Shown: positions 16,597 through 31,686 of the stretch, piece by piece | Numbering within the stretch: position 1 is the first letter of the stretch | Layout of the letters: each line of letters begins with the position of its first letter | Source: Allobaculum fili | GTDB lineage: Bacteria; Bacillota_I; Bacilli_A; Erysipelotrichales; Erysipelotrichaceae | Reading direction: 5' to 3' | DNA: 32,000 bases | Assembly: GCF_020969955.1 (NCBI RefSeq) | Contig: NZ_JAHDSX010000024.1 | Span: 3,084-35,083, forward strand | Notes under the pieces: generated by a model | Databases searched by the model: none | What the model was told of the DNA's origin: nothing | The model's input: the letters and a program-made list of their open reading frames with translations, nothing else | Position numbers and translations under genes: made by a program

Positions 16597-16920
16597 TCAG
16601 TCCATCTCTTCAACCGGTTCTTCAGGCAGACAGAGAACCGGGCCTTCCCCGTTTTGTAATGCTGCGTCCTCAATAGGAATGAAAGAAATCCGCAGTTCCA
16701 TCCCCAGGCCGTCGGCCAGCCGCTTGAGCAGCTTCAGGGAAGGGTTGCGATGTCCCCGCTCGAGCTTGGAGATATCGCCCTGGTCAATACCGGTGCGGCG
16801 GGCTAGCTCGCTCTGCGTGATCTGCAGTCTTTCCCGGGTATCCAGAATGGCATGAACGATTGCGTATTCAGGACTGCCTTCTTCGAGGTCAATCGGTGTT
16901 TCCCGCTTTGAAATAACCAT
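16597..16920 (-). CDS. XRE-family helix-turn-helix protein (HigA-like antitoxin/regulator type)
   Basis: ...SPEYAIVHAILDTRERLQITQSELARRTGIDQGDISKLERGHRNPSLKLLKRLADGLGMELRISFIP is a classic HTH_3 fold with an antitoxin-like tail. The start is uncertain. ATG 16920 gives the usual length of about 107 aa. In-frame ATGs at 16968 and 17070 also exist but have poor SDs. Confidence 0.8.
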   Translation of the reverse strand: MVISKRETPIDLEEGSPEYAIVHAILDTRERLQITQSELARRTGIDQGDISKLERGHRNPSLKLLKRLADGLGMELRISFIPIEDAALQNGEGPVLCLPEEPVEEMD

Positions 16921-17457
16921 AATCAGATCGGCTTCTCCAAAAGGTCCGTCATGAACCGGACCTGTCATTTTCTTCACGTGCCGGCGAAAGCAGCAGCCGG
17001 ACAAAAACCGTACGAAAGAAAACAGCCCCTGCTGGATTTCAAAATCCAGGCTGCCTGCTTCATGATGCATTTCAGGAGCTTTGCACTCAGAATTCCGGTT
17101 TGCGAAGAAGCTTTTCCTTTCTGAACTCGCCGGATCGATTCACGTTCTTAAAGCCCATGGAACGTCTTTGAACAATCTTAATCCGGCCGGGGTGGGAATA
17201 ATGAGGCGGAAAGTACCCATTCAGCATTTTTTCTGTCGATAAATTAAGATTTTTGTATACCTTTATCATCTTTACAGGGTAATAGAATTGCACGAAATTG
17301 TGCTGAACGTGTCTTTAAATTTAGTTTGTATCTTTATGAGACAATTTACAATATTTTTTTATTCGTCTTCCACAATTTTATTCAAATCGGATCCGGATTA
17401 TGTTGAAATCCGATTCAAATGGGTTCGAATCGTTTTGTGATGATAGACTCATCCATT

Positions 17458-17471
17458 TGAATGCGCATTCA
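17458..17471. promoter_or_regulatory. Perfect 14-bp palindrome TGAATGCGCATTCA in the AT-rich spacer (candidate operator)
   Basis: Read directly at 17458-17471. It lies about 340 bp upstream of the siroheme synthase start, and also upstream of the divergent XRE gene. Confidence 0.4.
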
Positions 17472-17803
17472 TTTTGAAGTGTTCCTGTACATTATGCCCC
17501 CTTCCCGGAATTTCCTCTACTTATAAAGAAAAGAGGGTTGCTTTTGTTAAGAACAAGTAAGGGAAAAAGCGCTGTGAAAGAATTCCTTTCATTTTCATTA
17601 ACGATTCCTTATTGCTTTCTAATATAAAAGTGCTAAATTCCAGCTCCGGTCATTTTTTAAAAATCCGTTTTGTCCGTCTTTTTCCCTGCCCGAATTTCCT
17701 TTCCCGTTTCCTTCTGGAGAAATCCTGTTCGTATTTAAGTACCTTTTCTCGATCTTTGCGTACGATAGTCTTGCCTTATGTTTCATTTAAGGCGTGCAGA
17801 AAG

Positions 17804-19936
17804 ATGGAGTTTTTATTCATGGCCTGGTTTCCTCTGTTTTTTGATCTGGAAAACAAACCCGTTCTCATTCTGGGCGGCGGTCATGCCGCTCTGGAAAAAG
17901 CGCAGCGGCTTCTTCCCTTCCATGCCCGTATTACGGTCTGTTCCCCTTCTTTTCTTGAAGCATTTGCGTCTTTACCCGTGATGCAAATCGAGCAGGAATG
18001 GTCGCCCGACTGGTTTTGTCCGACCGACTATCTGCTGATCATTGCGGCGACCGATCAGCCCGAAATCAATCACGCGATTGCCCTGTGGGCCAAAGAGAAA
18101 AACGTTCTTTGCAACTGCGTGGACGATCCGGACTGGTGCACCGTCACCTTTGGAGCGGTCGTTTCCGGAACGGAGTACGCTATCGGCATTTCCACTTCCG
18201 GCGCTTCGCCGACGGCTGCCCGCTATTTAAAACAGAAAATCCGGGAGATCGTCCCGGAAGACTTTGATTCCATTCTTCTCTGGCTGAAGCAGCTTCGCCC
18301 TTATATTCGCGAGACCGTTCCGTCTTCCCTTCGGCCCGTCGTTTTTCGAAGGCTGTTTGAAGACGCCATACGGAAAGGAAGTGCCCTTTGTGCAAAGGAA
18401 GTCGAACGGCTGATTGAGCACGCAGAACACAGGAGGAACTCTATGAATCGAAAGCCTGAAATTTCTCTGGTCGGGGCCGGATGTGCCGGTATTGAAGGCC
18501 TTACACTCGCTGCCCGGCATGCGATCGAACGCGCGGATGTCATCGTCTATGACCGTCTGATCGATCCGGAAATTCTGGATTTAAACCCCAATGCTGAAAA
18601 AATCGAACGCGGCAAGCGCGGACATGAAAAAAGCTCCAGTCAGCAGGAAATTCATGAACTGCTTCTGGAGCTTTCAAAACGGTATGCGCATATTGTCCGT
18701 CTGCAGGGCGGCGATCCGATGGTCTTTGGCCGCGGCATGGAAGAAATCGAAATTCTTCGACAGCACAATATCGATCTGCAGGTTCTTCCCGGCATTTCGA
18801 GTTTTTACGGCATTCCCGCCAAAGATCTCTTTGGTCTGACCCGGCGAAATGTTGCCGGCGGATTCATGGTTCTGACCGGAACGAGCGAAAACACACCGCG
18901 AACAAAGGAAGAATGGAAAAACATTGCTGAATTTTCCGGAACGATCGTCTTTCTGATGGCGATGAACCGGCTTGATGAAATTTCCCATCATCTGATGGAA
19001 GCCGGTATGGATCCGCATACGCCCTGCGCCATTTTTTCGTCACGCTCATCCATGATGACCGCCAGCGCTTCCTGCACGCTCGATTCGCTTTCTGCCTGTG
19101 CAAAAGAGCATCAGCTGTTTTCGCCGGCCATCGTAGTCATTTCCGGAACGGCCGCTTTATACGATCCGCCCAGGCATTTGCGCGTCGGGCTTTGCGGATC
19201 GGACGCTCTCAATCAGAAGCTGAAAGATCTTCTCCCCGCTTCTGTGCAGTATCAGCAGCTGCTCAAAGTCCGCTATCACGATCTGCCTTTGCCAGACGAT
19301 CTGTTTGATTCAGGTCTGCCGCAGTGGATCGTTTTGACCAGCGCGCACGGCATTCATGTCCTCATGCGCGAATTTCAGCGCCTGCACATCGATCATAGGA
19401 AACTGGCCAATACCCGGTTTGCGCTGATCGGACGCCAGAGCGCCAGAGTTCTCGAATCGTACGGGATTTTCGCCGACCTTGTCGCATCGCCTTCCTCCAG
19501 TCAATCCCTTCTTGAAACCCTCAAGCCCGAACTCGCTGAGGGAGATCGCGTTTTCCTCGCACAAAGCCGGCAGGCCATTGATGTTCTCTCCAGAGGACTG
19601 CAGGAAATTTCTTCGATTACTGTGCTAGAACATCCGCTCTATGAAGTGACTTTTGAAAGTTCGAGCATGGATTTTCTCCCGGCAAAAGTAAAAGACGATT
19701 CACCGGCCTGGAAAGAGCTTCTCCAGACGGATGTGCTCGCCGTTTCCAGCCGGGAATGTGCCAAAGCCGTCCTGCGCGATCATCTGCTCGACCGTACAAA
19801 ATGTATTGTTGCCATTTCGAAAGAAGTTGCCGATATTCTGGAAAATGAACGCAGTAAGAGAGCGATCGATCTTCGCATTGCCGAAACGCCAGATGCACAC
19901 GGCATGGCCGAAGCCATTGAAACGCTGCTTCCCTGA
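17804..19936 (+). CDS. Trifunctional siroheme biosynthesis fusion: precorrin-2 dehydrogenase/sirohydrochlorin ferrochelatase (SirC/CysG-N) + uroporphyrinogen-III C-methyltransferase (CobA/SirA) + uroporphyrinogen-III synthase (HemD)
   Basis: N-terminus FPLFFDLENKPVLILGGGHAALEK (Rossmann, SirC-like). Middle ISLVGAGCAGIEGLTL...VIVYDRL...VRLQGGDPMVFGRG...PGISS (SAM methylase). C-terminus WIVLTSAHGIHVL...ALIGRQSARVLESYG (HemD-like). Start is ATG 17804 or 17819. The tracked ORF start at 17612 is a TTG in AT-rich non-coding DNA. Confidence 0.87.
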   Translation: MEFLFMAWFPLFFDLENKPVLILGGGHAALEKAQRLLPFHARITVCSPSFLEAFASLPVMQIEQEWSPDWFCPTDYLLIIAATDQPEINHAIALWAKEKNVLCNCVDDPDWCTVTFGAVVSGTEYAIGISTSGASPTAARYLKQKIREIVPEDFDSILLWLKQLRPYIRETVPSSLRPVVFRRLFEDAIRKGSALCAKEVERLIEHAEHRRNSMNRKPEISLVGAGCAGIEGLTLAARHAIERADVIVYDRLIDPEILDLNPNAEKIERGKRGHEKSSSQQEIHELLLELSKRYAHIVRLQGGDPMVFGRGMEEIEILRQHNIDLQVLPGISSFYGIPAKDLFGLTRRNVAGGFMVLTGTSENTPRTKEEWKNIAEFSGTIVFLMAMNRLDEISHHLMEAGMDPHTPCAIFSSRSSMMTASASCTLDSLSACAKEHQLFSPAIVVISGTAALYDPPRHLRVGLCGSDALNQKLKDLLPASVQYQQLLKVRYHDLPLPDDLFDSGLPQWIVLTSAHGIHVLMREFQRLHIDHRKLANTRFALIGRQSARVLESYGIFADLVASPSSSQSLLETLKPELAEGDRVFLAQSRQAIDVLSRGLQEISSITVLEHPLYEVTFESSSMDFLPAKVKDDSPAWKELLQTDVLAVSSRECAKAVLRDHLLDRTKCIVAISKEVADILENERSKRAIDLRIAETPDAHGMAEAIETLLP

Positions 19937-20691: not shown

Positions 20692-21528
20692 TTATTCATC
20701 CCGTACCGTAAAGAACGTTCGATTTTCACGAAGCGGAAACAGTCTGGCTGTTCGGGTAGACGGGTCCCAGTCGTTCAGGCGGATCTCGAAAACTTCCTGT
20801 AGAAGATCGCTTTGGGCAAGTTCGATTGCGCTGCCCTGAAACACTTTCTGATGTCCATCCAGGACGAGAATTTCATCCGCATAGCGTAAAGCGAGATCAA
20901 GATCGTGCGCCACGACGACGAGAATGCGCGAAGGATCTTTCAGCATGCAGAGCAGATCCATGAGTTCAAAACGCGCGGAAGGATCGAGGTTGGCTCCCGG
21001 TTCATCCAGAAACAGACAGTGCGGGTTTTGAACGAGCACCTGTGCGATGGCCGCTTTCTGCCGTTCGCCAGCGGACACTTCATCCAGGCGATGCGTCGCC
21101 AGCGCGTCAATCGACAATGCACGCATCGCATCCTGTGCCCGTTTTGCTGCATCTTCTGACTGCATGCCGGAGAGATCTGTCTTCCCGGCTTTTTTCCAGA
21201 AACGCGAAAACCGGCTCTCTTCTCTGGCGTAATCGCCCAGTTCCACAAAGCGCTGAACGCTCATCTGCACATTGAGCGTATCGTCCGCGATTCGCCCGGT
21301 AATTCTCGCCCGTTCCATCGCAGAAAGAGGAAGGAGATTTTTCCCGTTGTACAATACGCTGCCGCTTTGCGGTTTCATCCAGCCGCCGAGAATGGAAAGC
21401 AGCGTACTTTTGCCGGAACCGTTGCGGCCGAGGATGATATACAGCTTTCCTTCTTTAAAATCGGAGGAAAAGTCTTGGATGACGACTTTGTTTCCGTAGC
21501 CGGCGCGAATATGTTCAGCTTTAAGCAT
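20692..21528 (-). CDS. ABC transporter ATP-binding protein (FecE/BtuD-type iron-chelate/cobalamin importer)
   Basis: GRNGSGKSTLL (Walker A), LSAGERQKAAIAQ (signature), LFLDEPGANLD (Walker B). AAAGGAG upstream. The start overlaps the permease stop by 8 nt. Confidence 0.9.
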   Translation of the reverse strand: MLKAEHIRAGYGNKVVIQDFSSDFKEGKLYIILGRNGSGKSTLLSILGGWMKPQSGSVLYNGKNLLPLSAMERARITGRIADDTLNVQMSVQRFVELGDYAREESRFSRFWKKAGKTDLSGMQSEDAAKRAQDAMRALSIDALATHRLDEVSAGERQKAAIAQVLVQNPHCLFLDEPGANLDPSARFELMDLLCMLKDPSRILVVVAHDLDLALRYADEILVLDGHQKVFQGSAIELAQSDLLQEVFEIRLNDWDPSTRTARLFPLRENRTFFTVRDE

Positions 21529-22477
21529 CCAGTTTTCTCCTTTCCAGAAGCAGATAGAGAAAATACGGACCGCCAGCCAGTGAGAGGACCAGTCCGGCCG
21601 GCAGCTCCCACGGAAGCAAAATCCAGCGGCCGATCAGATCCGCCGCGCCGACGAGCAGTGCGCCGACCAGAACGCAAAGAAGCAGAAACGTCTTAAACGG
21701 CAGACGATAGCGCGAAAGCCAGGCAGGGACAATGAGGCCGACAAAGCCAAGCATGCCGCAGAGCGAAACGACCCCGCACGCCAGCAGCGCGCAAAGAAAC
21801 AGAAAGAAGACACTCCATTTTTCCACATTCAGACCGAGCGTCTGTGCCTGCCGGTCGCCAAGCGTAAACATTTCCAGTTCTCTGGAAAAGAGGAACACCA
21901 GAACAATTGCCGGCAAAATCAAGATGGACGCATACAGATCCTTATTTAAGGAAAGCGAAGCCAGCGATCCGATCTTAAACGAGGCATAGCCGCTCAGCGC
22001 ATCCGGGACCAGGACGGTCAGAAGATCGATCCCGGCAGAAAACAGCTGGCTGATCGCCATGCCCGCCAGCAGGATTGTCAGCCGGGACGCTTTTCGCTTT
22101 CTGGCCAGATTGGCGACGAGAAGGCCGCACGCCAGACCGCCAAAAAAGCCGAACACCGTTCCTGCGCTGAAGGAGAGCGGAAAGAGACTGCTGCCAAGAA
22201 TGGTAAAAAAGCCGACCGAGGCGTTGACGCCGATGATGTTGGCCGAGGCCAGCGGATTATGCAAAATGGTCTGGACCAAAGCGCCGGAGAGCGCGAGCGC
22301 ACTTCCCGCAAGAAGAGCGCCAAGTACGCGCGGCAGACGCAGATGCAAAACGATCGAGCGCATCGATTCCTGCATCGGATCCAGCCAGCCGGCCGGACCG
22401 GCCAGTATGGAAATCACAGAAAGCCCAACCAGGAGAATGAGCGCGCCAAGCACCATTTTGCGCGGTTTACTCGCCAT
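21521..22477 (-). CDS. ABC transporter permease, FecCD/BtuC family
   Basis: About 9-10 TM segments. RLPRVLGALLAGSALALSGALVQ and GAADLIGRWILLPWELPAGLVLSLAGGPYFLYLL are typical of FecCD. Start uncertain: ATG 22477 (MASKPRK...), 22456 or 22507. Confidence 0.88.
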   Translation of the reverse strand: MASKPRKMVLGALILLVGLSVISILAGPAGWLDPMQESMRSIVLHLRLPRVLGALLAGSALALSGALVQTILHNPLASANIIGVNASVGFFTILGSSLFPLSFSAGTVFGFFGGLACGLLVANLARKRKASRLTILLAGMAISQLFSAGIDLLTVLVPDALSGYASFKIGSLASLSLNKDLYASILILPAIVLVFLFSRELEMFTLGDRQAQTLGLNVEKWSVFFLFLCALLACGVVSLCGMLGFVGLIVPAWLSRYRLPFKTFLLLCVLVGALLVGAADLIGRWILLPWELPAGLVLSLAGGPYFLYLLLERRKLDA

Positions 22478-23489
22478 AGACGATCGTTTCGAGATTTTCC
22501 AGAGCATCCGCCCACTTCGCGTTTGGCTTCAGGTTGTACAGCTTCTGATCGAGGACATACACTTTTCCGTTTTTAACCGCGTCCAGGTTTTTCCATGCAT
22601 CGCTCTGAAACAGGGCATCGGCGATTTCCTGCGCCTGTTCGTTCGTTTTTCCCTGCGCGACATAAAAAATCTGATCCGGGTTTTCTTTCGCGATGACTTC
22701 CATGGACAGCGTGTCCAGACCGTCTTCGCCAGCAATGTTTTCCGTTTTCAGATCCGCTAACATGGAGCCTAATACTGAGTTGGAAGAGCCAAGCGCCTTG
22801 ATTCCCTTTCCAGTTTCGCGAAGAGCCAGAACTTTTGGCGGGTTATTGCGCTCTTTGTTTCGAATGGCTTCGATGCGTTTCTGCTGTTCGAGACCGTTCT
22901 TTTCATAGCTGCTTGTATCCCCGGTAATACGACAGAACTGTTCCAGGACGCGCAGATAGTCTTCAAAGGAAGACACATCATAGTAAACGACAGGAATGCC
23001 GGATTCCTCCAGCAGATCCGCCATTTTCTTCTGAGAATCGTTTTTGGCACTGGCGATGACCAGGTCCGGATCGGATGAGAGCAGCGTTTCCTGCGCAATG
23101 GATTTCACATCGCCCAGATCCTGTACCTTTTCGGAATCGAGATCCAGATCAAAGGACGTCCACGTATCGTGCGCCGCTGCCGCAATCTGATCCTTGCCGC
23201 CGGCATCCGCAAAAAGGTCCGCAAAGCTTCCGATCAGAATGGCTGCGCGCTCCGGCTTTTGAATTTCGACCTCACGGCCAAGATCGTCCTTAAGAACAAT
23301 CGTCTGCTCATCCGTCTGGGTGTAAAGCGCCGAAGAGAGCGAGGACGTCTGGGAAGAAACGGAAGCATCCGCGGTTTGCGAAGAGTTCGACGCGCAGCCG
23401 CCCAGAAGAGAAGTCACGGCGGCGCAAAGCAGAAGGCGCGAGGCTAAGGAAGATTTTAAATTCAGGTTTCGTTTTGTAATTTTGTTCAT
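22467..23489 (-). CDS. ABC transporter substrate-binding lipoprotein (periplasmic binding protein type 2, BtuF/FhuD-like)
   Basis: Signal peptide with lipobox LLGGC, followed by an S/T-rich linker and a Peripla_BP_2-like body (...PDLVIASAKN..., ...NPDQIFYV..., ...GKVYVLD). No obvious SD before ATG 23489. Confidence 0.88.
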   Translation of the reverse strand: MNKITKRNLNLKSSLASRLLLCAAVTSLLGGCASNSSQTADASVSSQTSSLSSALYTQTDEQTIVLKDDLGREVEIQKPERAAILIGSFADLFADAGGKDQIAAAAHDTWTSFDLDLDSEKVQDLGDVKSIAQETLLSSDPDLVIASAKNDSQKKMADLLEESGIPVVYYDVSSFEDYLRVLEQFCRITGDTSSYEKNGLEQQKRIEAIRNKERNNPPKVLALRETGKGIKALGSSNSVLGSMLADLKTENIAGEDGLDTLSMEVIAKENPDQIFYVAQGKTNEQAQEIADALFQSDAWKNLDAVKNGKVYVLDQKLYNLKPNAKWADALENLETIVYGE

Positions 23490-23513
23490 AAGACAGTATT
23501 TGAATGGTGTTTT

Positions 23514-23537
23514 GAAAACCGGTGTAAGAAAACCGGT
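23514..23537. repeat. Direct repeat GAAAACCGGT x2 (14-nt period) immediately upstream of the ABC operon start; a third GAAAAC follows at about 23547
   Basis: gaaaaccggt at 23514-23523 and 23528-23537. ACCGGT is itself palindromic. Located 25-48 nt upstream of the substrate-binding protein start codon. Confidence 0.6.
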
Positions 23538-23544
23538 CTGAATC

Positions 23545-23584
23545 AGGAAAACGCTTCGGGATCAGAATTCTGATGCCGAAGCGT
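23545..23584 (-). terminator. Terminator hairpin after the sulfite reductase gene
   Basis: Minus strand ACGCUUCGG-CAUCAGAAUUCUGAUC-CCGAAGCGU (9-bp outer stem plus an inner palindrome) followed by UUUCCUGAUUC. Confidence 0.6.
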
Positions 23585-23666
23585 GAGTGAAAATCAAATT
23601 GGATATTAAATCAGGTAATCGGCAGCGGCTTCTTTTACTCCGTCTGGATTGGCCTTTTCCCAGGCA

Positions 23667-25163
23667 TCATAGCCCATGCCAGAAGCTTCCACGATGCGCG
23701 CGAGATGGATCAGGAAATCCGGAATGCGATCCAACCGGAATATTGCCGAGCTCCACGCCCATTTTTTCTTCGCCCTGTTCATCGTTTCCTCCGGCATAAA
23801 GCAGGAAGGTCGGAACCGGCTTCTTATCGACGACTTTCAGAGCGCCGCGGAAACCGATCTTGCCGATCTGATGGGCGGCACAGCTCGACGGGCAGCCGGA
23901 AATATGAATCTGCGGCAGAGCGTCATCGGCGACGCCGGCTTCGCTGACTTTGGCCAGAATCGTGCGCAGCAGATCCTGCGAATCGCGCAGACCGACCTGA
24001 CAGATGGACGCACCAATGCACGATTCGGACGTTTCGAACGCCGTCCGCGCCGCTTCGGATTCAATGATTTCCAGAATCTGACGGGCTTCGTTTGCAGTCA
24101 GGTTAATGATATAGGCCCCTTCGTCCGGGGACAGTCGCATTTCGACCTGATCCATATGTTCGAGAGCGCCGGACAGACGGCCGAGCGTTTCGATCGAAGG
24201 AACGCCGCCGCGCGGATGGAAGAGAACGCTGTACAGATCGCCGTTGGTCTGATGCTTCACGATGAAGGACTCTTCGAGCGGTTCGCCCTCGCCTTCCTTG
24301 TGAATGCGCAGATCTTCAAAATTGTCTACATACAGGTTCTTTTCTTCTTTGAGCTTGCGGAATTCCTTGTCGAATTCCTCGATCAGACGATCGCGGCCAA
24401 GGCTTTCCTGCAAATAGCGGGTTCTGGCTTTGGAGCGGTTTTCGTAGTTGCCGTATTTACGGAACAGGCGGATCATCGCTTCAATGACGTACAGAATCTT
24501 ACCCGGTTCCAGGCTTTCTTTGACTTTTACGCCAAATTTAGGATTGTTTCCCAGACCGCCGGCGATATAGACATCGTAGCGGCCGTCTTCTCTGGCTACA
24601 AAGCCAAGATCGCGGAACGTCGCATGAGTGACGTTGGATTTCGAATTGGAGAACGCGACTTTCAGCTTGCGGGGCATTTTGTCCTGGTCGATGAAATCGA
24701 GCAGGAATTCAGCAGCCGCAAGGGCATGGGGCATAACGTCAAAGTATTCTTCTTCCACGCCGCTGAGCGGAGAGCACATCACGTTGCGCGGATAGTCGCC
24801 GCCGCCTCCGTAGCAGACGATGCCGACATTGGGGGCCTGCTCCATAATGTCGCAGACGGTATCGACATCGAGATCGTGCAGCTGGATGGTCTGGCATGTT
24901 GTAAAGTGCGCCATCTTGACATCGTGCTTGCGAATCATTTCAACAATAAAGCGCAGTTTTTCCGGCGTGACGCGGCCGCCGCTCATACGCAGACGCAGCA
25001 TGCTTTTCTGGCCGCCGCGCTGGGCGTAGCTTCCGTATTTTCCGGAGAAGCCTTTGTATTCCTTCATATTCATCTGGTGATTGAAGAATTTTTCCGCTCC
25101 TTCGCGAAATTTCGGAACGACTTTCTTATATTCATCGTAATCGACAGGTTTTAAAACAGACAT
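23667..25163 (-). CDS. Nitrite/sulfite reductase family protein (siroheme-[4Fe-4S] type, probable assimilatory/anaerobic sulfite reductase); 3' end appears frameshifted
   Basis: ...RLRMSGGRVTPEKLRFIVEMIRKH...TTCQTIQLHDL..., cluster cysteines CIGASICQVG ... ISGCPSSCAAHQIGKIGFRG. AGAGG upstream of ATG 25163. The last 23 aa of this frame look non-native, while an overlapping frame (23606..23797) encodes a native-looking C-terminus. See findings. Confidence 0.85.
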   Translation of the reverse strand: MSVLKPVDYDEYKKVVPKFREGAEKFFNHQMNMKEYKGFSGKYGSYAQRGGQKSMLRLRMSGGRVTPEKLRFIVEMIRKHDVKMAHFTTCQTIQLHDLDVDTVCDIMEQAPNVGIVCYGGGGDYPRNVMCSPLSGVEEEYFDVMPHALAAAEFLLDFIDQDKMPRKLKVAFSNSKSNVTHATFRDLGFVAREDGRYDVYIAGGLGNNPKFGVKVKESLEPGKILYVIEAMIRLFRKYGNYENRSKARTRYLQESLGRDRLIEEFDKEFRKLKEEKNLYVDNFEDLRIHKEGEGEPLEESFIVKHQTNGDLYSVLFHPRGGVPSIETLGRLSGALEHMDQVEMRLSPDEGAYIINLTANEARQILEIIESEAARTAFETSESCIGASICQVGLRDSQDLLRTILAKVSEAGVADDALPQIHISGCPSSCAAHQIGKIGFRGALKVVDKKPVPTFLLYAGGNDEQGEEKMGVELGNIPVGSHSGFPDPSRAHRGSFWHGL

Positions 25164-25528
25164 GGATATTTACCTCTATTCCACTTCAGTATAATACAGT
25201 GCATTTTCTGACACCCCTTACTTGAATCACAAATCTGAGGATTTTGACGTGCGGCTGTCTCCGCCCGGCTTCGTTTTTGAAACGTGTATATATCCTTTGC
25301 GGTTCCTTTCCTGCTCATTTCGGATAAAAAGAGCGTCTTCTCTGTTTTCTGTTCAAAATCTGGAACCTTCTATCTTCTTCCCCTTTTCTGGACTGCGCAG
25401 GATCCGCCTTGCTTCGTTCGCACGGAGTGCCCGCTGGATTGTGGAATATCACGCTATTCCTTCCAGGCTGCGAAACATGTCCTCGTGCCTGTCCGATTCG
25501 TCGGCTCTGGCGGCTTTTGATCTTTCCG

Positions 25529-25557
25529 TTGAATCCCCTTTTGGATTTCTTTATAAT
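25529..25557 (+). promoter_or_regulatory. Near-consensus sigma-A promoter of tRNA-Leu (TTGAAT - 17 nt - TATAAT)
   Basis: -35 at 25529-25534 and -10 at 25552-25557 with an exact 17-nt spacer. The tRNA 5' end is 10 nt downstream. Confidence 0.8.
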
Positions 25558-25566
25558 GAACACGTT

Positions 25567-25653
25567 GCCCGCGTGGTGAAACTGGTAGACGCAGTGGACT
25601 CAAAATCCATCGACAGCGATGTCGTGCCGGTTCGAGTCCGGCCGTGGGCACCA
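25567..25653 (+). tRNA. tRNA-Leu (anticodon CAA), type II with long variable arm, encoded CCA
   Basis: Acceptor GCCCGCG/CGTGGGC (one G-T pair), anticodon stem GTGGA/TCCAT with loop CTCAAAA, variable arm CGACAGCGATGTCG, T-arm GCCGGTTCGAGTCCGGC, discriminator A plus CCA. Confidence 0.95.
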
Positions 25654-25702: not shown

Positions 25703-25737
25703 AACGCGCAGATCCATACGGAAATCTGCGCGTTTTG
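25703..25737. terminator. Second, bidirectional hairpin terminator (serves the minus-strand nuclease gene)
   Basis: AACGCGCAGAT-10 nt-ATCTGCGCGTT. T-rich tracts follow on both strands (TTTTGTT on plus; TTATTTCGTTT on minus). Confidence 0.7.
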
Positions 25738-25764: not shown

Positions 25765-25794
25765 CCGCTCACTTAATCGCCGCTCACTCAATCG
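25765..25794. repeat. Tandem 15-bp duplication spanning the stop codon of the nuclease gene
   Basis: ccgctcacttaatcg (25765-25779) and ccgctcactcaatcg (25780-25794), 14/15 identical. On the coding strand this gives GAT TGA ... GAT TAA, two in-frame stops 5 codons apart. Confidence 0.85.
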
Positions 25795-28025
25795 GATAAA
25801 TCCGAATGAACTGCGTCGTTTAGAGGTTCTTCGTTTTTTTGCGCTGTATTTTCGTCGATCCCGTTTTCCGGCTCCAGTCCGGAAAAATCGACAGAGCGAT
25901 CGACCGGCTCCTCGACCGGATTATCCTGTGCCGGATCCGAATCGAGCGAAGATGGGGTCATAGGCGGGAACGCTTCCTGATCTTCCGTGGCCTCCATCGT
26001 TTCGAAGTCTTCCTCAAACGGATCTTCGGGGTCAGCCTCATCGGGATCAAACAAAGACGCCTGCGAGAGTAGTGCCAGCGAGGCCAGCGGCGATTGCGAA
26101 TCCAGATTGGCGGGAAGCAGACTGTCGCTGTCCGAAACATTTAGCGGCCGCTCGTAAATCGCTCGGGCCTTTTCGATCTGATTGGTAAAGAGACGCTGCA
26201 AAGCTTCAAACTGATCGGCCTGCCGGGTTCCCGGATATTCGTAAAGCGAAATGATTTCGACCTGCGGAAAGATCGACTCCGAATCGCGGACCAGATCGTA
26301 AATCGAGCGGGCGATGCGCAGACGAGTCTGTACTTCCGGATTTCGTCCATTGAATACGTAAAGACCGGTAATCTGATCGTCCGGATGAATCGGCGAAATG
26401 GAAAACAGATACTTGAAGATCAGCGGGAAAATTTTCTGCTTTTTGACATCGTGCGACGTGGAGTACTTGGCATCGCCGAGAATGTAGCGGGCGCCTTTCC
26501 ACTTTGGACTTTCAATGCGGAATACGTAGTCCGGCGTGTAGTACGTTCCATAGGAAGATTCTTCACTGCCCTTGATCGGCATCGAAATCGATGTGGAGCG
26601 GCCAAGGCCGGTAATCGCGCGGTCTGGATGCTTGTGGTTGTAGATGACCGGCTGATAGTAAAGCGTGATTTTCAGATCGTCCTTCTGATAAATGTAGACG
26701 TTGTTGATCTCGGTGTTCTTATAAAACGTATCGCTTTCAAACGTGTAGTTGACCCGGTACGAACGGGTGCGCTGAAAGCCGCTGCTTTCGAAAAACTCGC
26801 CCAGCTTCGTCAGAACGTACACTTCATACATTTCCGTAATCTGCAAAAACGTTCGAACGAAGCGAAGATCGCCGACACTCACGTTTTTCCTCGCGAAGCA
26901 GCGGCTGATGCTTTCGTAAATCAGACGGTATGCGGGCAGCTGACGGAACGCCGGGGTCAGCGTCGGCGCTTTTTTCAGTTCAATGAGTCTGGCCGGAATG
27001 GCACGGGAATACACCTGATACAGATAACGGAACCCCGCGAGCAGATCCCGCAGTTCGTTTTCTGTCGAATCAAACGAGTTTTTCATGACTTCGTACAGGA
27101 AGGCCGCAGAGTTCTGCATGTTCGTGATCGTCTTGTCATGAAGAACCGACCGGGCAGGAATCAGCTTTTTCTCCCTGGCCAGTTCGGGAATCATGGCTTC
27201 AATATCGTCGCAGACACCCTTGAGAAACGAGAGAGTGACCTGATTTTCGTACACATCCGTCGTACTGAGCGTCTGATCGACGTGCGAGAGATCGGGAATA
27301 TATGTGTTCATTCCAATACGCAGACCGACGCGGGAATCGCGAACACGATGCAGGGCTTCTGGATGTCCCAGCAAATACCGCACGCTGGCCTGCATGGACT
27401 GGCTGCTGCCGTTCTGAGAGTGAAGCGCAGCTTTTCTTGGCCGCAGGCGAATGAGCCGCCAGGACCGTTCAAAAAGCGTCGCGGTCTGCTTGAGCTGACG
27501 GATCTTGTCTTCAAGCGAATAGTAGCCGGGCCCTTTAGATCCTTCCCGGGTATCGTAGTCTTCCCTGGTTCCGTAAAAGAGCATCGGATTGTGACGGGCA
27601 ATATAGGCGCCCATGGAATTGACGGAATAGTTTTCGTCCGTCAGCGGCGTGATGACTTCGATGTAGTCGGAGTAAAACATCTGAGCCGGTCCGCTGGCGT
27701 AAGTCACCCGGATGGTAAAGCGCGCAAAGCCAAAGGCATCGGCGAAAATCGATTTCGACCGGCCGCCGGGCGCGAAGTAGAGACGGTTGGTATTGGCGTA
27801 GTAGGTGGCACTGATCGGATAGTGGTTCAGCTGAACTTCCACATGCCGTATGTAGCCGGCACGCGGAACGCTGAGCTGCGCCGAATACGATCCCGTGGCA
27901 TACACCTGGGCTTTCTGCGCTTTTAACAAATAGGAGAGCGGCAGTACTTCATCGGCCGGATGCAGCGGAACTTCGATCAGTTCCGCCCGGTAGTCGTCAT
28001 AAAGCCGCAGTACGCTTTCGGACAT
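25788..28025 (-). CDS. McrC-like / DUF2357-like protein with C-terminal PD-(D/E)xK nuclease core and acidic low-complexity tail (745 aa)
   Basis: Start ATG 28025 shares one base with the upstream gene's stop (TGATG). Nuclease motifs: ITEMYEVYVLTKL (E398/E401), YYTPDYVFRI (D499), YILGDAKYS (D518-A-K520, DNA 26466-26474). The N-terminal 150 aa are beta-rich and the middle is helical. The last 118 aa or so are D/E/S/P-rich. The tracked ORF start (28097) lies inside the upstream gene. Confidence 0.8.
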   Translation of the reverse strand: MSESVLRLYDDYRAELIEVPLHPADEVLPLSYLLKAQKAQVYATGSYSAQLSVPRAGYIRHVEVQLNHYPISATYYANTNRLYFAPGGRSKSIFADAFGFARFTIRVTYASGPAQMFYSDYIEVITPLTDENYSVNSMGAYIARHNPMLFYGTREDYDTREGSKGPGYYSLEDKIRQLKQTATLFERSWRLIRLRPRKAALHSQNGSSQSMQASVRYLLGHPEALHRVRDSRVGLRIGMNTYIPDLSHVDQTLSTTDVYENQVTLSFLKGVCDDIEAMIPELAREKKLIPARSVLHDKTITNMQNSAAFLYEVMKNSFDSTENELRDLLAGFRYLYQVYSRAIPARLIELKKAPTLTPAFRQLPAYRLIYESISRCFARKNVSVGDLRFVRTFLQITEMYEVYVLTKLGEFFESSGFQRTRSYRVNYTFESDTFYKNTEINNVYIYQKDDLKITLYYQPVIYNHKHPDRAITGLGRSTSISMPIKGSEESSYGTYYTPDYVFRIESPKWKGARYILGDAKYSTSHDVKKQKIFPLIFKYLFSISPIHPDDQITGLYVFNGRNPEVQTRLRIARSIYDLVRDSESIFPQVEIISLYEYPGTRQADQFEALQRLFTNQIEKARAIYERPLNVSDSDSLLPANLDSQSPLASLALLSQASLFDPDEADPEDPFEEDFETMEATEDQEAFPPMTPSSLDSDPAQDNPVEEPVDRSVDFSGLEPENGIDENTAQKNEEPLNDAVHSDLSD

Positions 28026-30625
28026 CAGCTGAAGAACTGATAGAACTGCATGGAACCGTCTCCTTTTTCCATGATTTCCTTCAGTTTTCTGCCGCACTTA
28101 ATGAGTCCGCCTGTTTCGCAGACTTTTTTCATTTTTTCCAGAATGGTACGGAACTGGTGCGAAGACCCGTTGATTTTCGGAAGCAGACGCTGGAGTACGG
28201 CGTAGTCGAGCGCCATCGTGCCGGCATCACTATAGGCCTCGTCTTCATCGGGTACAAACCAGCGCAGAGCGGTCAGCACGTATTTGCGCAGCGCGCTTTC
28301 CGAACGGATGGAAACCGTAAGTCCGGCTTCCTTGAACAGAGCGGCCAGCGACTGATACACGTCTTCAAGCGCGCTTGGCAGCGTCTGGCTGTCTTCCTGC
28401 GGCAGGAACACTTCGTCAAGCTGTTCGTGCGTAATCAGCGAAGAGCGGAATTCGTCTTCCAGAAGCGGTCTGGCCGGCTTGAGCAGCAGACGCTTTTCCG
28501 GCATCGTAATGACCCAGGCACGGTCCAGCAGACGGCTGCTTAACGGTTCGGTCGTGTGGTCGGACTGAATGGCAGCCGCAAAATGCAGAGTCCTCGGAAT
28601 TTCAAACGTATACGTGTCGCCCAGCGCGATCGTACCGCGGATGGCGGCGTTTTCTTCCATGGACATGAAGTCGGCCCAGTAGTATTCCATGCTCGACAGG
28701 TTGGCATCGTCGAGAAGGACGAGCGCCGGGAGCGAATCCGAGCCGCTGTTTCCGCGGCTTTCCTGATTCAGAATGCTGAGCAGATCAAACAGACGCGGAT
28801 CCGCTTTTTCAAAGGAGCGGGTCAGCGAGTTGTAAAAGCCGATCAGATCGCGGCGGCTTGACCAGCCGCGTTCGACGCTGACGGAGACAAAACGGGAGCA
28901 GTACGGAAACTGCGGATGACTTTTTTCAAGTTCTGCCGGCTGATCGAGGTGAAGCGCCTGCGCCGTAACGCGGCAGATCGACGTTTTTCCAGAGCCTGGC
29001 TGACCAGTAAAGATAGTCAGGAAGCCCTGGGTCAGGCAGATGAGAATGTTCAGAATTTCATTGCGGGAATATTCCGGACGGCTTTTCTGCATCGTGAACA
29101 CCAGATAGTCCACGAGCTGTTCCTTCGAAAGGAAGGATCGCGGCATGGCCGCAATGGCGCGGGACGCCTGCTGGTAAATTTCCAGCCGTCTGGCATTTTC
29201 CAGACGGGCGGTATGTTCCATGAAGCGTTCGGAAATCATATCGTCAAATGAGATTTCCAGCGTTTTCTGGCTGGAGCGTTCGAGCAGTTCATCGAGTTTT
29301 CCCTGCAGGCCTTCCATCTGTACGTTGAGATCGGCAATGCTTTTTTCACGACGCGCAATTTCTTCCTGCAAGTAGGACGATCTTGCTTCCAGGTTGGCCA
29401 CATCCTTGCCGATATTGGCCTGCCGCAGCGCTTCCTGGAATTCTTCTTCGGCTTTGGCTTTCATGGACTTGAGCTGATCGAGCTCTTCCTGATAGCGTTC
29501 GAGCTGCTGCTTTGGCTGCAGGATTTCCAGCTCATCGACGGCTTTCTGGAGTTCTTCCTTCTGCGCCTTCAGTTCGCTGTTTTTCTGCTTGAGCTGGCTT
29601 GTAAACGTGACGTATTCCGAATACGCAGGGAGCGCTTCGACAAATTCCTCATTTTCGAGCAGCTCATGAACCATATCCATATAGTCAGGATCGTCCTTGC
29701 GGGCCTTGAACATTTCCGGAATGAGCGAGGAAAGTTCATTAAAAAGTTCGCCGTTTTTTGCGGACGATTCAAAGATCGCCTGAAGCCGCTTTACCCGCTC
29801 CGCAGCCAGTGCGGCCGGAATGTCCTTGCCGCTGATCAGCGAGTTCTGGTAACTGGCCAGCAGACTCGCAAACGCGGCGGGATCGACACCGATAGTTTTC
29901 GCCGTTTTTCCCTTGATGGATGCGGTAAAGTTTTCGATCAGTTCCTCATCGGAAATGGTGTCGGTCGGACACGGTTCGATGCCTTCGCCTTCGATGCGGA
30001 CATAGCCGCGCGTCACATCGATCTGTTCCAGCGTATGGATCCGATCCGCCAGAGAAGGCGAATACAGATAGCCGGAAATAATGGAGTTTTTCTGATCAAG
30101 CGAAGGATAGATCACCAGTTCATCGAGATCTTCGTCGTAACGGACCCGAAACGGACCGACGAGCGTATTTTCGATCGGACCTGGAATCATGACCCGCATA
30201 TCTTCGTTGACGTCGCGGGTATTCAAAATCACCGTTGAATCTTTACGCCAGTCCCCTTCTACGGCTTCCTGGGGCAGCGCATAGTACCAGCCCACATCTT
30301 CCATGCGAAGAATCGATCCGGAATACTGCTTGAACACATCGAGTTTCCAGGCGGAAGGATAGACGCTCCCATCGCTTTTCAAATTTGGAATGAGCTTATC
30401 GCTCTGAAAATCAATAATGACGTCGTCTCCGTCCTGAAACAGATCGTCTAAACGCATCGATGTCGAAGAGGAAAACAGATTCAGGTTGGGATACTGCGAT
30501 CCCGGAAGAATCTTCTCCACATCTTCATCGCTCAAACGAATAAATTTGTCTTTTTCATAAATGTACGTCGGATAAAAATTCACATAAAATCCGCTGGTTC
30601 GAATTTCTCCTACATAGCGCGGCAT
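28025..30625 (-). CDS. McrB-like AAA+ (AAA_5-type) P-loop NTPase with unknown N-terminal domain and long coiled coil (866 aa)
   Basis: Walker A GQPGSGKTS (aa 541-549, DNA 28982-29005). Walker B-like LVLLDDANLSS (aa 635-645), comparable to McrB hhhDEINRANLS. FAAAIQSDHTTEPLSSRLLDRAWVI is comparable to McrB GTMNTADRS...LRRRF. Heptad-rich, E/K/Q/L-rich segment at about aa 340-490. AAAGGAA upstream of ATG 30625. Confidence 0.8.
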   Translation of the reverse strand: MPRYVGEIRTSGFYVNFYPTYIYEKDKFIRLSDEDVEKILPGSQYPNLNLFSSSTSMRLDDLFQDGDDVIIDFQSDKLIPNLKSDGSVYPSAWKLDVFKQYSGSILRMEDVGWYYALPQEAVEGDWRKDSTVILNTRDVNEDMRVMIPGPIENTLVGPFRVRYDEDLDELVIYPSLDQKNSIISGYLYSPSLADRIHTLEQIDVTRGYVRIEGEGIEPCPTDTISDEELIENFTASIKGKTAKTIGVDPAAFASLLASYQNSLISGKDIPAALAAERVKRLQAIFESSAKNGELFNELSSLIPEMFKARKDDPDYMDMVHELLENEEFVEALPAYSEYVTFTSQLKQKNSELKAQKEELQKAVDELEILQPKQQLERYQEELDQLKSMKAKAEEEFQEALRQANIGKDVANLEARSSYLQEEIARREKSIADLNVQMEGLQGKLDELLERSSQKTLEISFDDMISERFMEHTARLENARRLEIYQQASRAIAAMPRSFLSKEQLVDYLVFTMQKSRPEYSRNEILNILICLTQGFLTIFTGQPGSGKTSICRVTAQALHLDQPAELEKSHPQFPYCSRFVSVSVERGWSSRRDLIGFYNSLTRSFEKADPRLFDLLSILNQESRGNSGSDSLPALVLLDDANLSSMEYYWADFMSMEENAAIRGTIALGDTYTFEIPRTLHFAAAIQSDHTTEPLSSRLLDRAWVITMPEKRLLLKPARPLLEDEFRSSLITHEQLDEVFLPQEDSQTLPSALEDVYQSLAALFKEAGLTVSIRSESALRKYVLTALRWFVPDEDEAYSDAGTMALDYAVLQRLLPKINGSSHQFRTILEKMKKVCETGGLIKCGRKLKEIMEKGDGSMQFYQFFS

Positions 30626-30912
30626 AGTTTCATTCCTTTCCTGCCTTTCGGCTGAATTAATTTGATTATAGGACCGATCCCGGCCAGATTTTACGTTAAG
30701 CCGCTGAATTCAGGGATGTTTAGAAAAAATATAGAAAAGGCGCTCCCGCTTTCCCCTATAATTGAATCGGTCTGTCCAGTCGCTTGATATTCAGCGCAGG
30801 CAATCTTGAATGTTTACGAATGTATTATTTCGTATTCGTTAAAATTGCGGTCGTTTAGGCAGCCGATCTGCACCGCTGCTTTAGGCGCTGGCTGGAGAAA
30901 AGAGGAAAATGC

Positions 30913-31686
30913 ATGCATTTTACATTTAAGGAAATCGAATACTACAAACCCGATGGAAAACCCGACATCTGTCTGGAATGCTTCAGCGTAATCGACCTGA
31001 ATGTCTATGAACTACTTGAATTCAGCCGCGACAAAAACAAGTGCTACTACTGGGCTTTGAAAAGTCAGATTACCGGCGATGTGAAAGCCTACATCACTTC
31101 GGTCTACTACATCGACGGCGAAAACAGCCTTACCGGAAAGCCGACGTTTAAAATCGTGCACGGTTTTGAATACGAAGACCCGCGCGAATATCACTGTCCG
31201 CGCTCGGTGCTCGACCGGCTGACGCCGACCACCGATCCGCGTGCCCTGCAATGGCGGCGCAAAGCGCAGTACGCGCTCAATCAGGCAGCCCTGCTCAATC
31301 AGAAATTTATCGAAGAACACCAGAAGGCGCAGCAGGAGCCGGATTTCTTGGTCCCTGCCCTGACTTCTTCTGTGACTGCGCTGATTGTTCAGGAAGAGAA
31401 GCTTCCCTTTTTGACCGAAGCAAAACCAGATAAGGTACACGATATGAAAAAAGAGGAAAACCAGACATACGCTTCAACTTCCCGTTCTCTTCTCAAAACC
31501 GACGCGGTGCTGCTTCCGCGCTCCCGTCATCAGACACCGAAACGCCGTCAGGTCCTTCTTGCGCCAAGACGTCTGAAAAAAGCAAAACGGCTGCCCAGAC
31601 GACCGAGCAAGGATCATCCTTCCTTTACTGCAGGCAAACCAATGCACTTTCAGGGCAATGTCCTGCTGCTGAATCTGAAATATTAA
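30913..31686 (+). CDS. Hypothetical protein; the N-terminal 130 aa or so resemble a phage/plasmid-associated domain with a CPxSxLDxLTPT...WR signature; basic low-complexity C-terminal half
   Basis: AGAGGAAAATGC precedes ATG 30913. ...YEDPREYHCPRSVLDRLTPTTDPRALQWRRKA... I recall this signature from the family named DUF6927, unverified. The C-terminal R/K/P-rich part may be non-native or frameshifted. Confidence 0.55.
   Translation: MHFTFKEIEYYKPDGKPDICLECFSVIDLNVYELLEFSRDKNKCYYWALKSQITGDVKAYITSVYYIDGENSLTGKPTFKIVHGFEYEDPREYHCPRSVLDRLTPTTDPRALQWRRKAQYALNQAALLNQKFIEEHQKAQQEPDFLVPALTSSVTALIVQEEKLPFLTEAKPDKVHDMKKEENQTYASTSRSLLKTDAVLLPRSRHQTPKRRQVLLAPRRLKKAKRLPRRPSKDHPSFTAGKPMHFQGNVLLLNLKY

Follow-up and report, generated by a model that had tools for sequence, protein, structure and literature searches.

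The stretch analysed here, called the window below, covers 32,000 nucleotides of Allobaculum fili (contig NZ_JAHDSX010000024.1, positions 3,084 to 35,083) and carries on its minus strand two adjoining genes, which we name A and B. Gene A (28025..30625) encodes a putative CnuB/McrB-like coiled-coil AAA+ NTPase of 866 aa, and gene B (25788..28025) a putative CnuC/McrC-like nuclease of 745 aa. The two open reading frames (ORFs) meet in the sequence agcTGATGtcc, where the A at position 28025 is common to the stop codon of gene A and the start codon of gene B; with this one-base overlap the genes are translationally coupled. A prediction made earlier from the letters alone (the original prediction) had described the two minus-strand genes and their shared base, and both the ORFs and the junction agree with it. 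A longer reading of gene B from a GTG (769 aa, to 28097, overlapping gene A by 72 nt) was rejected, because the homologous loci use the overlapping ATG. A 99-100% identical copy of the pair is present in another public assembly, and Allobaculum mucilyticum has an orthologue (WP_230226765.1 and its neighbour). Each protein has hundreds of homologues with invariant motif residues, a pattern that would be far more than chance could be expected to yield.

Relatives of A were gathered from the neighbours of B homologues and by a degenerate-pattern scan with one genome per species. The scan returned 167 species genomes of about 185,000, a patchy distribution. Locus counts below refer to the best 80 of these 167 relatives (L010-L089), and profile and motif counts for A to 76 sequences. 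On this basis, protein A is an AAA+ NTPase of the McrB family in which a beta-rich domain at the N-terminus and then a long coiled coil precede the NTPase. Residues 520-866 (28028..29068) comprise the McrB-type NTPase and a C-terminal helical domain. The family alignment places Walker A, GQPGSGKT, at residues 541-548 (28982..29005); Walker B, LVLLDDANLS, follows at 635-644 (28694..28723), with D as its second acidic residue versus E in the family. The signature or sensor-1 motif, IQSDHTT, lies at 686-692 (28550..28570) with NxD-type spacing and Q in place of N, and RLLDRAWVI occupies 698-706. Residues G541, G544, G546, K547, T548, D639, D689, R698 and R702 are invariant in the family.

The family profile aligns A538-819 with residues 198-438 of E. 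coli McrB, the entire GTPase domain (hhalign 91.8%, E 7.6e-7), and the Walker A, Walker B and N-x(x)-D signature are all in register. The Pfam family AAA_5 is matched by 9 of 42 A relatives (best 7.9e-7). Both results favour the earlier proposal that A is collinear with the McrB motifs and derived from McrB. In this alignment Q687 pairs with the N of NTAD in McrB, but D689 is two residues past the sensor-1 position, compared with three in NTAD; the distance from Walker B to (N/Q)xD is about 45 residues. Direct searches of PDB sequences with window A found nothing, and HMM (hidden Markov model) profiles of 9 and 43 sequences did not retrieve McrB or McrC from PDB sequences. A further homologue search, word-indexed and started from the A alignment, gave only the four close relatives, and was probably swamped by coiled-coil words.

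The middle of protein A, residues ~250-500 (29126..29878), is composed of long helices in the AlphaFold2 (AF2) model and draws coiled-coil-type matches. The model was built from a 5-sequence alignment and has a predicted local distance difference test score (pLDDT) of 47.5, and Foldseek on it was uninformative. Helices at 333-369, 371-401, 406-454 and 457-492 reach a pLDDT of 60-76, giving about 160 residues of long helix (333-492), the coiled coil of the protein. Residues 1-240 (29906..30625) make up the beta-rich N-terminal domain, the presumed sensor, which is conserved in 33 family members with the motifs NF(K/Y)P, LLPES, TGYK and GPY. The low-confidence model gives residues 1-75 a beta1-3/helix/beta4-5 pattern. 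A profile of the domain found no relative of these ~240 residues in Pfam, in PDB sequences or among the N-termini of published Type I-A proteins. Many A relatives (L032, L060, L062, L077, L079 and others) are longer, at 1,000-1,370 aa, with an extra N-terminal extension of 150-500 residues that has no Pfam match, and one family member has a weak intein-splicing match (E 0.0036).

By sequence and model, protein B is a homologue of McrC with an Ig-like domain, a DUF2357 region and an intact PD-(D/E)xK nuclease. Its AF2 model is confident (pLDDT 79.6; predicted template modelling score 0.77). In the model, residues 1-127 (27645..28025) are all-beta and resemble an Ig-like sandwich. Residues 130-392 (26850..27638) are helical and make up the DUF2357 (McrC N-terminal) region, in which 259-342 is a long helical hairpin; relatives match PF09823. 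The nuclease core, residues 396-625 (26151..26840), has an alpha-beta-beta-beta-alpha arrangement at pLDDT 90-97. Its motif positions are E398/E401 (in TEMYEVY), P498-D499 and D518-A-K520; E401, D499, D518 and K520 are invariant among 43 sequences and sit in the expected elements of a canonical nuclease core. Residues 635-745 (25791..26123) constitute an acidic tail, predicted to be disordered (pLDDT <50), with 16 D, 15 E, 13 S and 13 P among its 111 residues and a variable length among homologues. The Ig-like domain, the hairpin and the tail account for B being twice the size of McrC. Since B contains just 2 Cys, it lacks a zinc ribbon, and no CSD insert is seen in the DUF2357 region of the model.

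Direct searches of window B against Pfam, NCBIfam and PDB sequences gave nothing besides a borderline match to PDDEXK_7 (PF04411; 1.1e-4, barely over the Pfam gathering cut-off). Among its homologues, PDDEXK_7 is matched by 27 of 43 and DUF2357 (PF09823) by 19 of 43, and the B profile aligns with E. coli McrC 187-305, the DAK motif included (hhalign 70.9%). Foldseek of the B model against PDB gave nothing significant; the N-terminal sandwich has weak, non-significant matches to RhoGDI (1ajw, 5fr1). The assignment of a PD-(D/E)xK core and DUF2357 to B in the original prediction is therefore supported by the invariant residues, the confident model and the Pfam matches of the family, and all the motifs that it named in A and B are located at the residues given.

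The two genes were expected to co-occur. Of the 80 loci, 78 have a B-family ORF directly after A and in the same orientation, and in the remaining two the contig ends just past A; A and B are thus adjacent in all 78 testable loci. No third conserved gene was seen beside the pair in the loci examined. A HMMER search of the full library gave 903 clusters at 50% identity (E <= 1e-30). Relatives are found in 256 plasmid records, 157 of them from Klebsiella, and in only three viral contigs. On the Klebsiella pneumoniae IncFIB plasmid NZ_CP141663.1 (L100; 132480-136582), a 764-aa 'AAA family ATPase' and a 603-aa hypothetical protein overlap by 4 nt; this shorter relative has the signature INQDET and insertion sequence elements on either side, and is common on clinical Klebsiella plasmids. 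On an Acinetobacter plasmid the second gene of the pair is annotated as DUF2357. Both plasmid pairs match the A and B family HMMs strongly and have NxD motifs. Public annotation of the family proteins is limited to hypothetical, AAA+ ATPase or DUF2357.

As described above, the window protein has D640 in Walker B and Q687 at sensor-1, in place of E and N. Among the 76 relatives, Walker B is DE in 67, DD in seven and DN in two, and sensor-1 is N in 67 and Q in nine (the window and eight others). The two positions vary together: 67 of 76 combine LLDEANLS with INNDHTT, and the nine Q sequences combine Q with DD (seven) or DN (two). These nine sequences are at least 39% identical to the window (39-53%), while every other relative is at 33% or below, and all of them come from Allobaculum and Erysipelotrichaceae genomes (including L002, L004 and L010-L015). 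The 'Walker B-like' DD and the IQSD of the original prediction are therefore present, but as lineage-specific departures from the DE and NxD of the family. The E-to-D replacement loses one methylene and the N-to-Q replacement gains one. The Walker B and Nx(x)D residues are said to position the catalytic water jointly (PMC11090510), and the change looks compensatory, as if the active site had been re-tuned and not inactivated.

The closest known systems are the coiled-coil nuclease tandems (CoCoNuTs), a branch of McrBC to which the original prediction had assigned the pair. In the account of Bell et al. (eLife 2024, PMC11090510), NxD, which has one residue deleted relative to NxxD and is 'strictly conserved', marks the McrB GTPase clade that contains the CoCoNuTs. 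The A family signature, with the consensus ATINNDHTTE.LSPRLIDRA, is an NxD motif. At the level of sequence, the A family is closer to published CnuB than to canonical McrB, its HMM scoring 64-66 bits against three Type I-A CnuB fragments (Supplementary file 3 of PMC11090510) and 2.3 bits against E. coli McrB. These scores, the family signature and the coiled coil all support the assignment to the CoCoNuT branch.

Type I-A and Type I-C CoCoNuTs consist of CnuB and CnuC only (PMC11090510). In Type I-C, CnuB is CSD-YTH-CoCo-McrB and CnuC is IG-McrC_N-PD-DxK, with GFD85286.1 and MBV0932852.1 as examples; GED20858.1 and ROR86958.1 are further published CnuB sequences. The Type I-A GTPase is interrupted by a helical insert, and its CnuC partner contains both a CSD insert and a zinc ribbon (PMC11090510). 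Like Type I-C, the window has just two genes, CnuB then CnuC, with overlapping frames. Protein A shares with Type I-C the N-terminal beta-rich region, the coiled coil and the NxD-type McrB NTPase without a helical insert. Protein B shares the Ig-like sandwich, whose weak RhoGDI resemblance is also given for CnuC of Types I-B and I-C (PMC11090510), as well as DUF2357, the intact PD-DxK and the lack of a zinc ribbon. The likeness is judged by architecture and not by direct sequence comparison; the CSD and YTH folds give no signal in A in Pfam, PDB-profile and Type I-A N-terminal comparisons, and the window differs from the clade in having QxD for NxD and DD for DE at Walker B. The 240-aa domain with the coiled coil and the double-size McrC had been presented as differences from the McrBC plan; they are real, but they are no new departure, being the published Type I-C architecture.

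Type I-A shares with the window the two-gene operon and, between CnuB and A, the homologous NTPase with the common elements PV.P.WT..DLLGYYNP, LDE.NL...EYY.ADF and N.D.TT..LSP...DRA. The alignment of the A family HMM to Type I-A CnuB splits exactly at their helical insert of 55-75 aa between Walker B and NxD, which the A family does not have. Protein B likewise differs from Type I-A CnuC in having neither the zinc ribbon (2 Cys) nor the CSD insert in DUF2357, and the N-terminal domain of A is unrelated in sequence. The pair resembles E. coli K-12 McrBC (Type IV) in its B-then-C order, overlapping stop and start, collinear AAA+ motifs and aligned DAK, a likeness that is detectable profile-to-sequence only. 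It differs in having (N/Q)xD instead of NxxD, in the replacement of the DUF3578 DNA reader by the 240-aa domain and the ~250-aa coiled coil, and in the length of B (745 aa, compared with 348 aa for McrC), which has the extra Ig domain, helical hairpin and acidic tail.

Among PADLOC models, PDC-M26A, a McrB-like model of the candidate system PDC-M26, is matched partially by window A (1.7e-22; profile positions 152-438 of 724) and by all 42 A relatives tried. The matches of the relatives, and of the Klebsiella and Acinetobacter plasmid proteins, run from the coiled coil through the first half of the NTPase domain, the best at 4e-34; E. coli McrB matches weakly too. B has no match among the PADLOC models, so the locus would go uncalled by PADLOC v2. 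We found no literature on PDC-M26.

The chromosomal surroundings of the pair differ between lineages. In other Erysipelotrichaceae genomes it occupies a conserved slot, with PulA-IMPDH upstream and a convergent tRNA-Leu(CAA), NIR_SIR and Peripla_BP_2 (ABC transporter) downstream. The evidence comes from window positions 20692-25653, from L014, L015 and L093 (12-16 kb) and, for the upstream side, from L002, L091, L093 and L095. The tRNA-Leu(CAA) (25567..25653, plus strand; Rfam), a syntenic marker of the locus, recurs downstream of the pair in L002, L013, L014, L015, L091 and L093. The adjacency to a tRNA gene noted in the original prediction is thus correct, and is conserved synteny of this lineage. 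Across the syntenic genomes A and B are 35-41% identical, compared with 61-65% for three of the four neighbours compared and 52% for the ABC ATPase; since synteny is kept while A and B diverge, the pair has been retained at one site and evolves fast. No defence island surrounds the pair in this Erysipelotrichaceae lineage; its place is a conserved chromosomal site by tRNA-Leu(CAA).

Elsewhere the setting is mobile. In a Tn916-like element (L103, 1066-19877) the pair is part of a dense defence island together with two EcoRI-type methylases, GmrSD_N-HNH, a DEAD/ResIII helicase, a WYL protein, a PemK toxin, Xis and an integrase. Another relative pair is on an integrative and conjugative element (ICE) next to a Type I restriction-modification system, one further copy adjoins a transposase, and in L102 the pair directly follows smpB-ssrA (the tmRNA gene). 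Of the 80 loci, 15 have a tRNA or tmRNA gene no more than 1.5 kb from the pair, and those found are diverse: Leu, Arg, Gln, Pro, Asn/Met, Gly, Asp/Val, Thr, Ser and tmRNA. Such variety points to insertion at classical integration sites of islands more than to a functional tie to any single tRNA.

Taken together, we consider it likely that the A-B pair is a two-gene, McrBC-like, NTP-dependent nuclease module of the CoCoNuT type, belonging to the NxD clade and matching the Type I-C architecture, whose role is most probably directed against phages or other mobile elements. A and B diverge faster than their syntenic neighbours, as conflict genes typically do and housekeeping genes seldom do, and relatives in other lineages are found in mobile-element or defence settings. 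By analogy with McrBC (structures from E. coli and T. gammatolerans, summarised in PMC11090510), protein A would assemble into a hexameric ring, and the DUF2357 domain of B would insert into this ring and stimulate NTP hydrolysis. The N-terminal domain of A may recognise a nucleic-acid feature of the invader, with the coiled coils bridging or spacing complexes, and NTP-driven engagement would license the PD-(D/E)xK site of B to cut, most likely DNA. We favour DNA cleavage as the predicted output, because the nuclease triad is invariant; the trigger may be modified DNA or RNA.

Several observations weigh against this module reading. The neighbours of the pair in the window are housekeeping genes, for AlaRS, RecD2, MnmA, sirohaem synthase, an ABC transporter and a sulfite/nitrite reductase, and no integrase, transposase or defence gene is present there near the pair; the position in a defence island, which the original prediction proposed to check, is therefore not found in this lineage, although it is found elsewhere, in the Tn916-like element. 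Window A alone matches generic P-loop models (Pfam and NCBIfam) but not AAA_5 (Pfam), so that the AAA_5 link, which holds among the relatives, needs family-level profiles. The E-to-D change at Walker B and the N-to-Q change at sensor-1 could impair hydrolysis. With a pLDDT of 47.5, the AF2 model of A does not establish the ring, the coiled-coil geometry or the N-terminal fold, and the Type I-C subtype is an assignment by architecture. Finally, the literature yielded no experimental paper on any CoCoNuT, in accordance with the original prediction, and for this reason the defence role is one that we infer.

What the nuclease acts on could also be RNA. In an RNA-directed version of the module, after the hypothesis of Bell et al., the N-terminus of A would be a CSD-like OB fold plus a YTH/EVE-like reader that senses (modified) RNA or translation components (tRNA, tmRNA), and the system would cleave RNA or trigger dormancy. 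We give this version a real, if minor, chance. The match to Type I-C, with its CnuB annotated CSD-YTH-CoCo-McrB, speaks for it, and the strand pattern of residues 1-75 is compatible with an OB fold. However, Pfam, PDB-profile and Type I-A N-terminal comparisons gave no CSD, YTH or EVE signal, and there is no HEPN or other RNase, the sole effector being an intact PD-(D/E)xK of a class that is usually DNA-specific; the variety of the adjoining tRNA genes is better explained by island integration sites. A different identity for A itself was suggested by PADLOC and NCBIfam, namely a SMC/Rad50- or Lamassu-type ATPase (LmuB/JetC-like). The matches to ASRP, Rad50, JetC and LmuB (PADLOC, NCBIfam, PDB profiles) have weak E-values and are limited to the coiled coil (A ~280-500), and a SMC, Lamassu or Wadjet identity was rejected for this reason. 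The AAA+ domain is contiguous and C-terminal to the coiled coil, has sensor-1, arginine fingers and a McrB-type DExN Walker B, and aligns with McrB, whereas neither an ABC-type signature motif nor a head with Walker A and Walker B split around the coiled coil is present; the partner is moreover DUF2357/McrC-like. We find such an ATPase hardly credible here.

The altered catalytic pair invites two further explanations. One is that the module is decaying or compromised as an NTPase, protein A being a relic or a scaffold that binds NTP without hydrolysing it. McrB mutagenesis (cited in PMC11090510) found the Walker B Glu and sensor-1 Asn positions, replaced here by D640 and Q687, to be needed for hydrolysis, and two clade members have DN at Walker B. 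Against such decay, both ORFs are intact, Walker A, R698, R702 and the nuclease triad do not vary in a clade whose identity is 39-53%, the one-methylene changes look compensatory, and a 99-100% identical pair exists in a second assembly; we judge it quite unlikely. The other explanation is a domesticated chromosomal function in Erysipelotrichaceae, in which the pair, long kept in place and changed at its NTPase site, would act in a process of the host, e.g. nucleic-acid quality control. It accords with synteny across genomes whose neighbour proteins are just 61-65% identical, with a window free of integrase, transposase or defence neighbours and with the clade-specific E-to-D and N-to-Q changes. 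Nevertheless, A and B diverge faster than their neighbours (35-41% against 61-65% identity), in the manner of conflict genes, relatives elsewhere are on ICEs, plasmids and in defence islands, and the distribution over species is patchy (167 of ~185,000), which makes domestication unlikely. Within the CoCoNuT reading, it is conceivable, though doubtful, that Erysipelotrichaceae possess a subtype of their own. Its re-engineered McrB-type site and long vertical retention would go with an NTPase whose kinetics or choice of nucleotide has changed and which acts as a slow switch, not as a motor, perhaps also with a host-integrated role and an undescribed sensor fold in the 240-aa domain.

A strong terminator-like hairpin on the minus strand (25703..25734; a 13-bp stem, then a T-rich tail) closes the A-B operon. 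The region upstream of gene A (30626..30912), the presumed promoter and 5' untranslated region, has, by sequence reading, a purine-rich Shine-Dalgarno sequence (GGAAAGGAA) ahead of the ATG, and a consensus scan of this region called no promoter. The Rfam scan found no match other than the tRNA, and a search for att-like direct repeats around the pair beside the tRNA gave just short chance matches. Two antisense ORFs on the plus strand, 26385-27926 (513 aa, inside B) and 29666-30238 (190 aa, inside A), were set aside as frame shadows without support, and a third, 23676-25154 (492 aa, plus strand), inside the sulfite reductase gene, was treated likewise. Divergent from gene A is a 257-aa ORF (30913-31686, plus strand) with no Pfam match, whose C-terminal half is basic and of low complexity; gene calling on the identical Logan contig (L001) reports it too. 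The G+C content falls to 0.40 at 17001-18000, compared with ~0.51 for the window, between the genes for a helix-turn-helix regulator (16597-17070) and sirohaem synthase (17612-19936). Downstream of the pair in L002, L003 and L091 (~11.5-17.6 kb) there is a conserved trio of genes, for a 794-aa VWA-like protein, a 1,172-aa Tubulin_2 protein (PF13809) and a product of >640 aa. The trio occurs in some Allobaculum-like genomes, and may be a separate conflict or cytoskeletal module.

The locus adds one member to a large class already known from computational work, and does not found a new category. Its original feature is a modest one, the D/Q catalytic pair together with the syntenic retention in Erysipelotrichaceae. 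The CoCoNuTs are a very large branch of McrBC defined by computation alone, and a minimal two-gene representative with an intact nuclease offers a practical entry point to experiments on their targets and on defence. The D/Q lineage is in addition a natural experiment on the McrB catalytic pair, which is E/N in most relatives, D/Q here and N/Q in two genomes. Residue swaps between these orthologues would allow the proposed joint role of Walker B and Nx(x)D in positioning the water to be probed.

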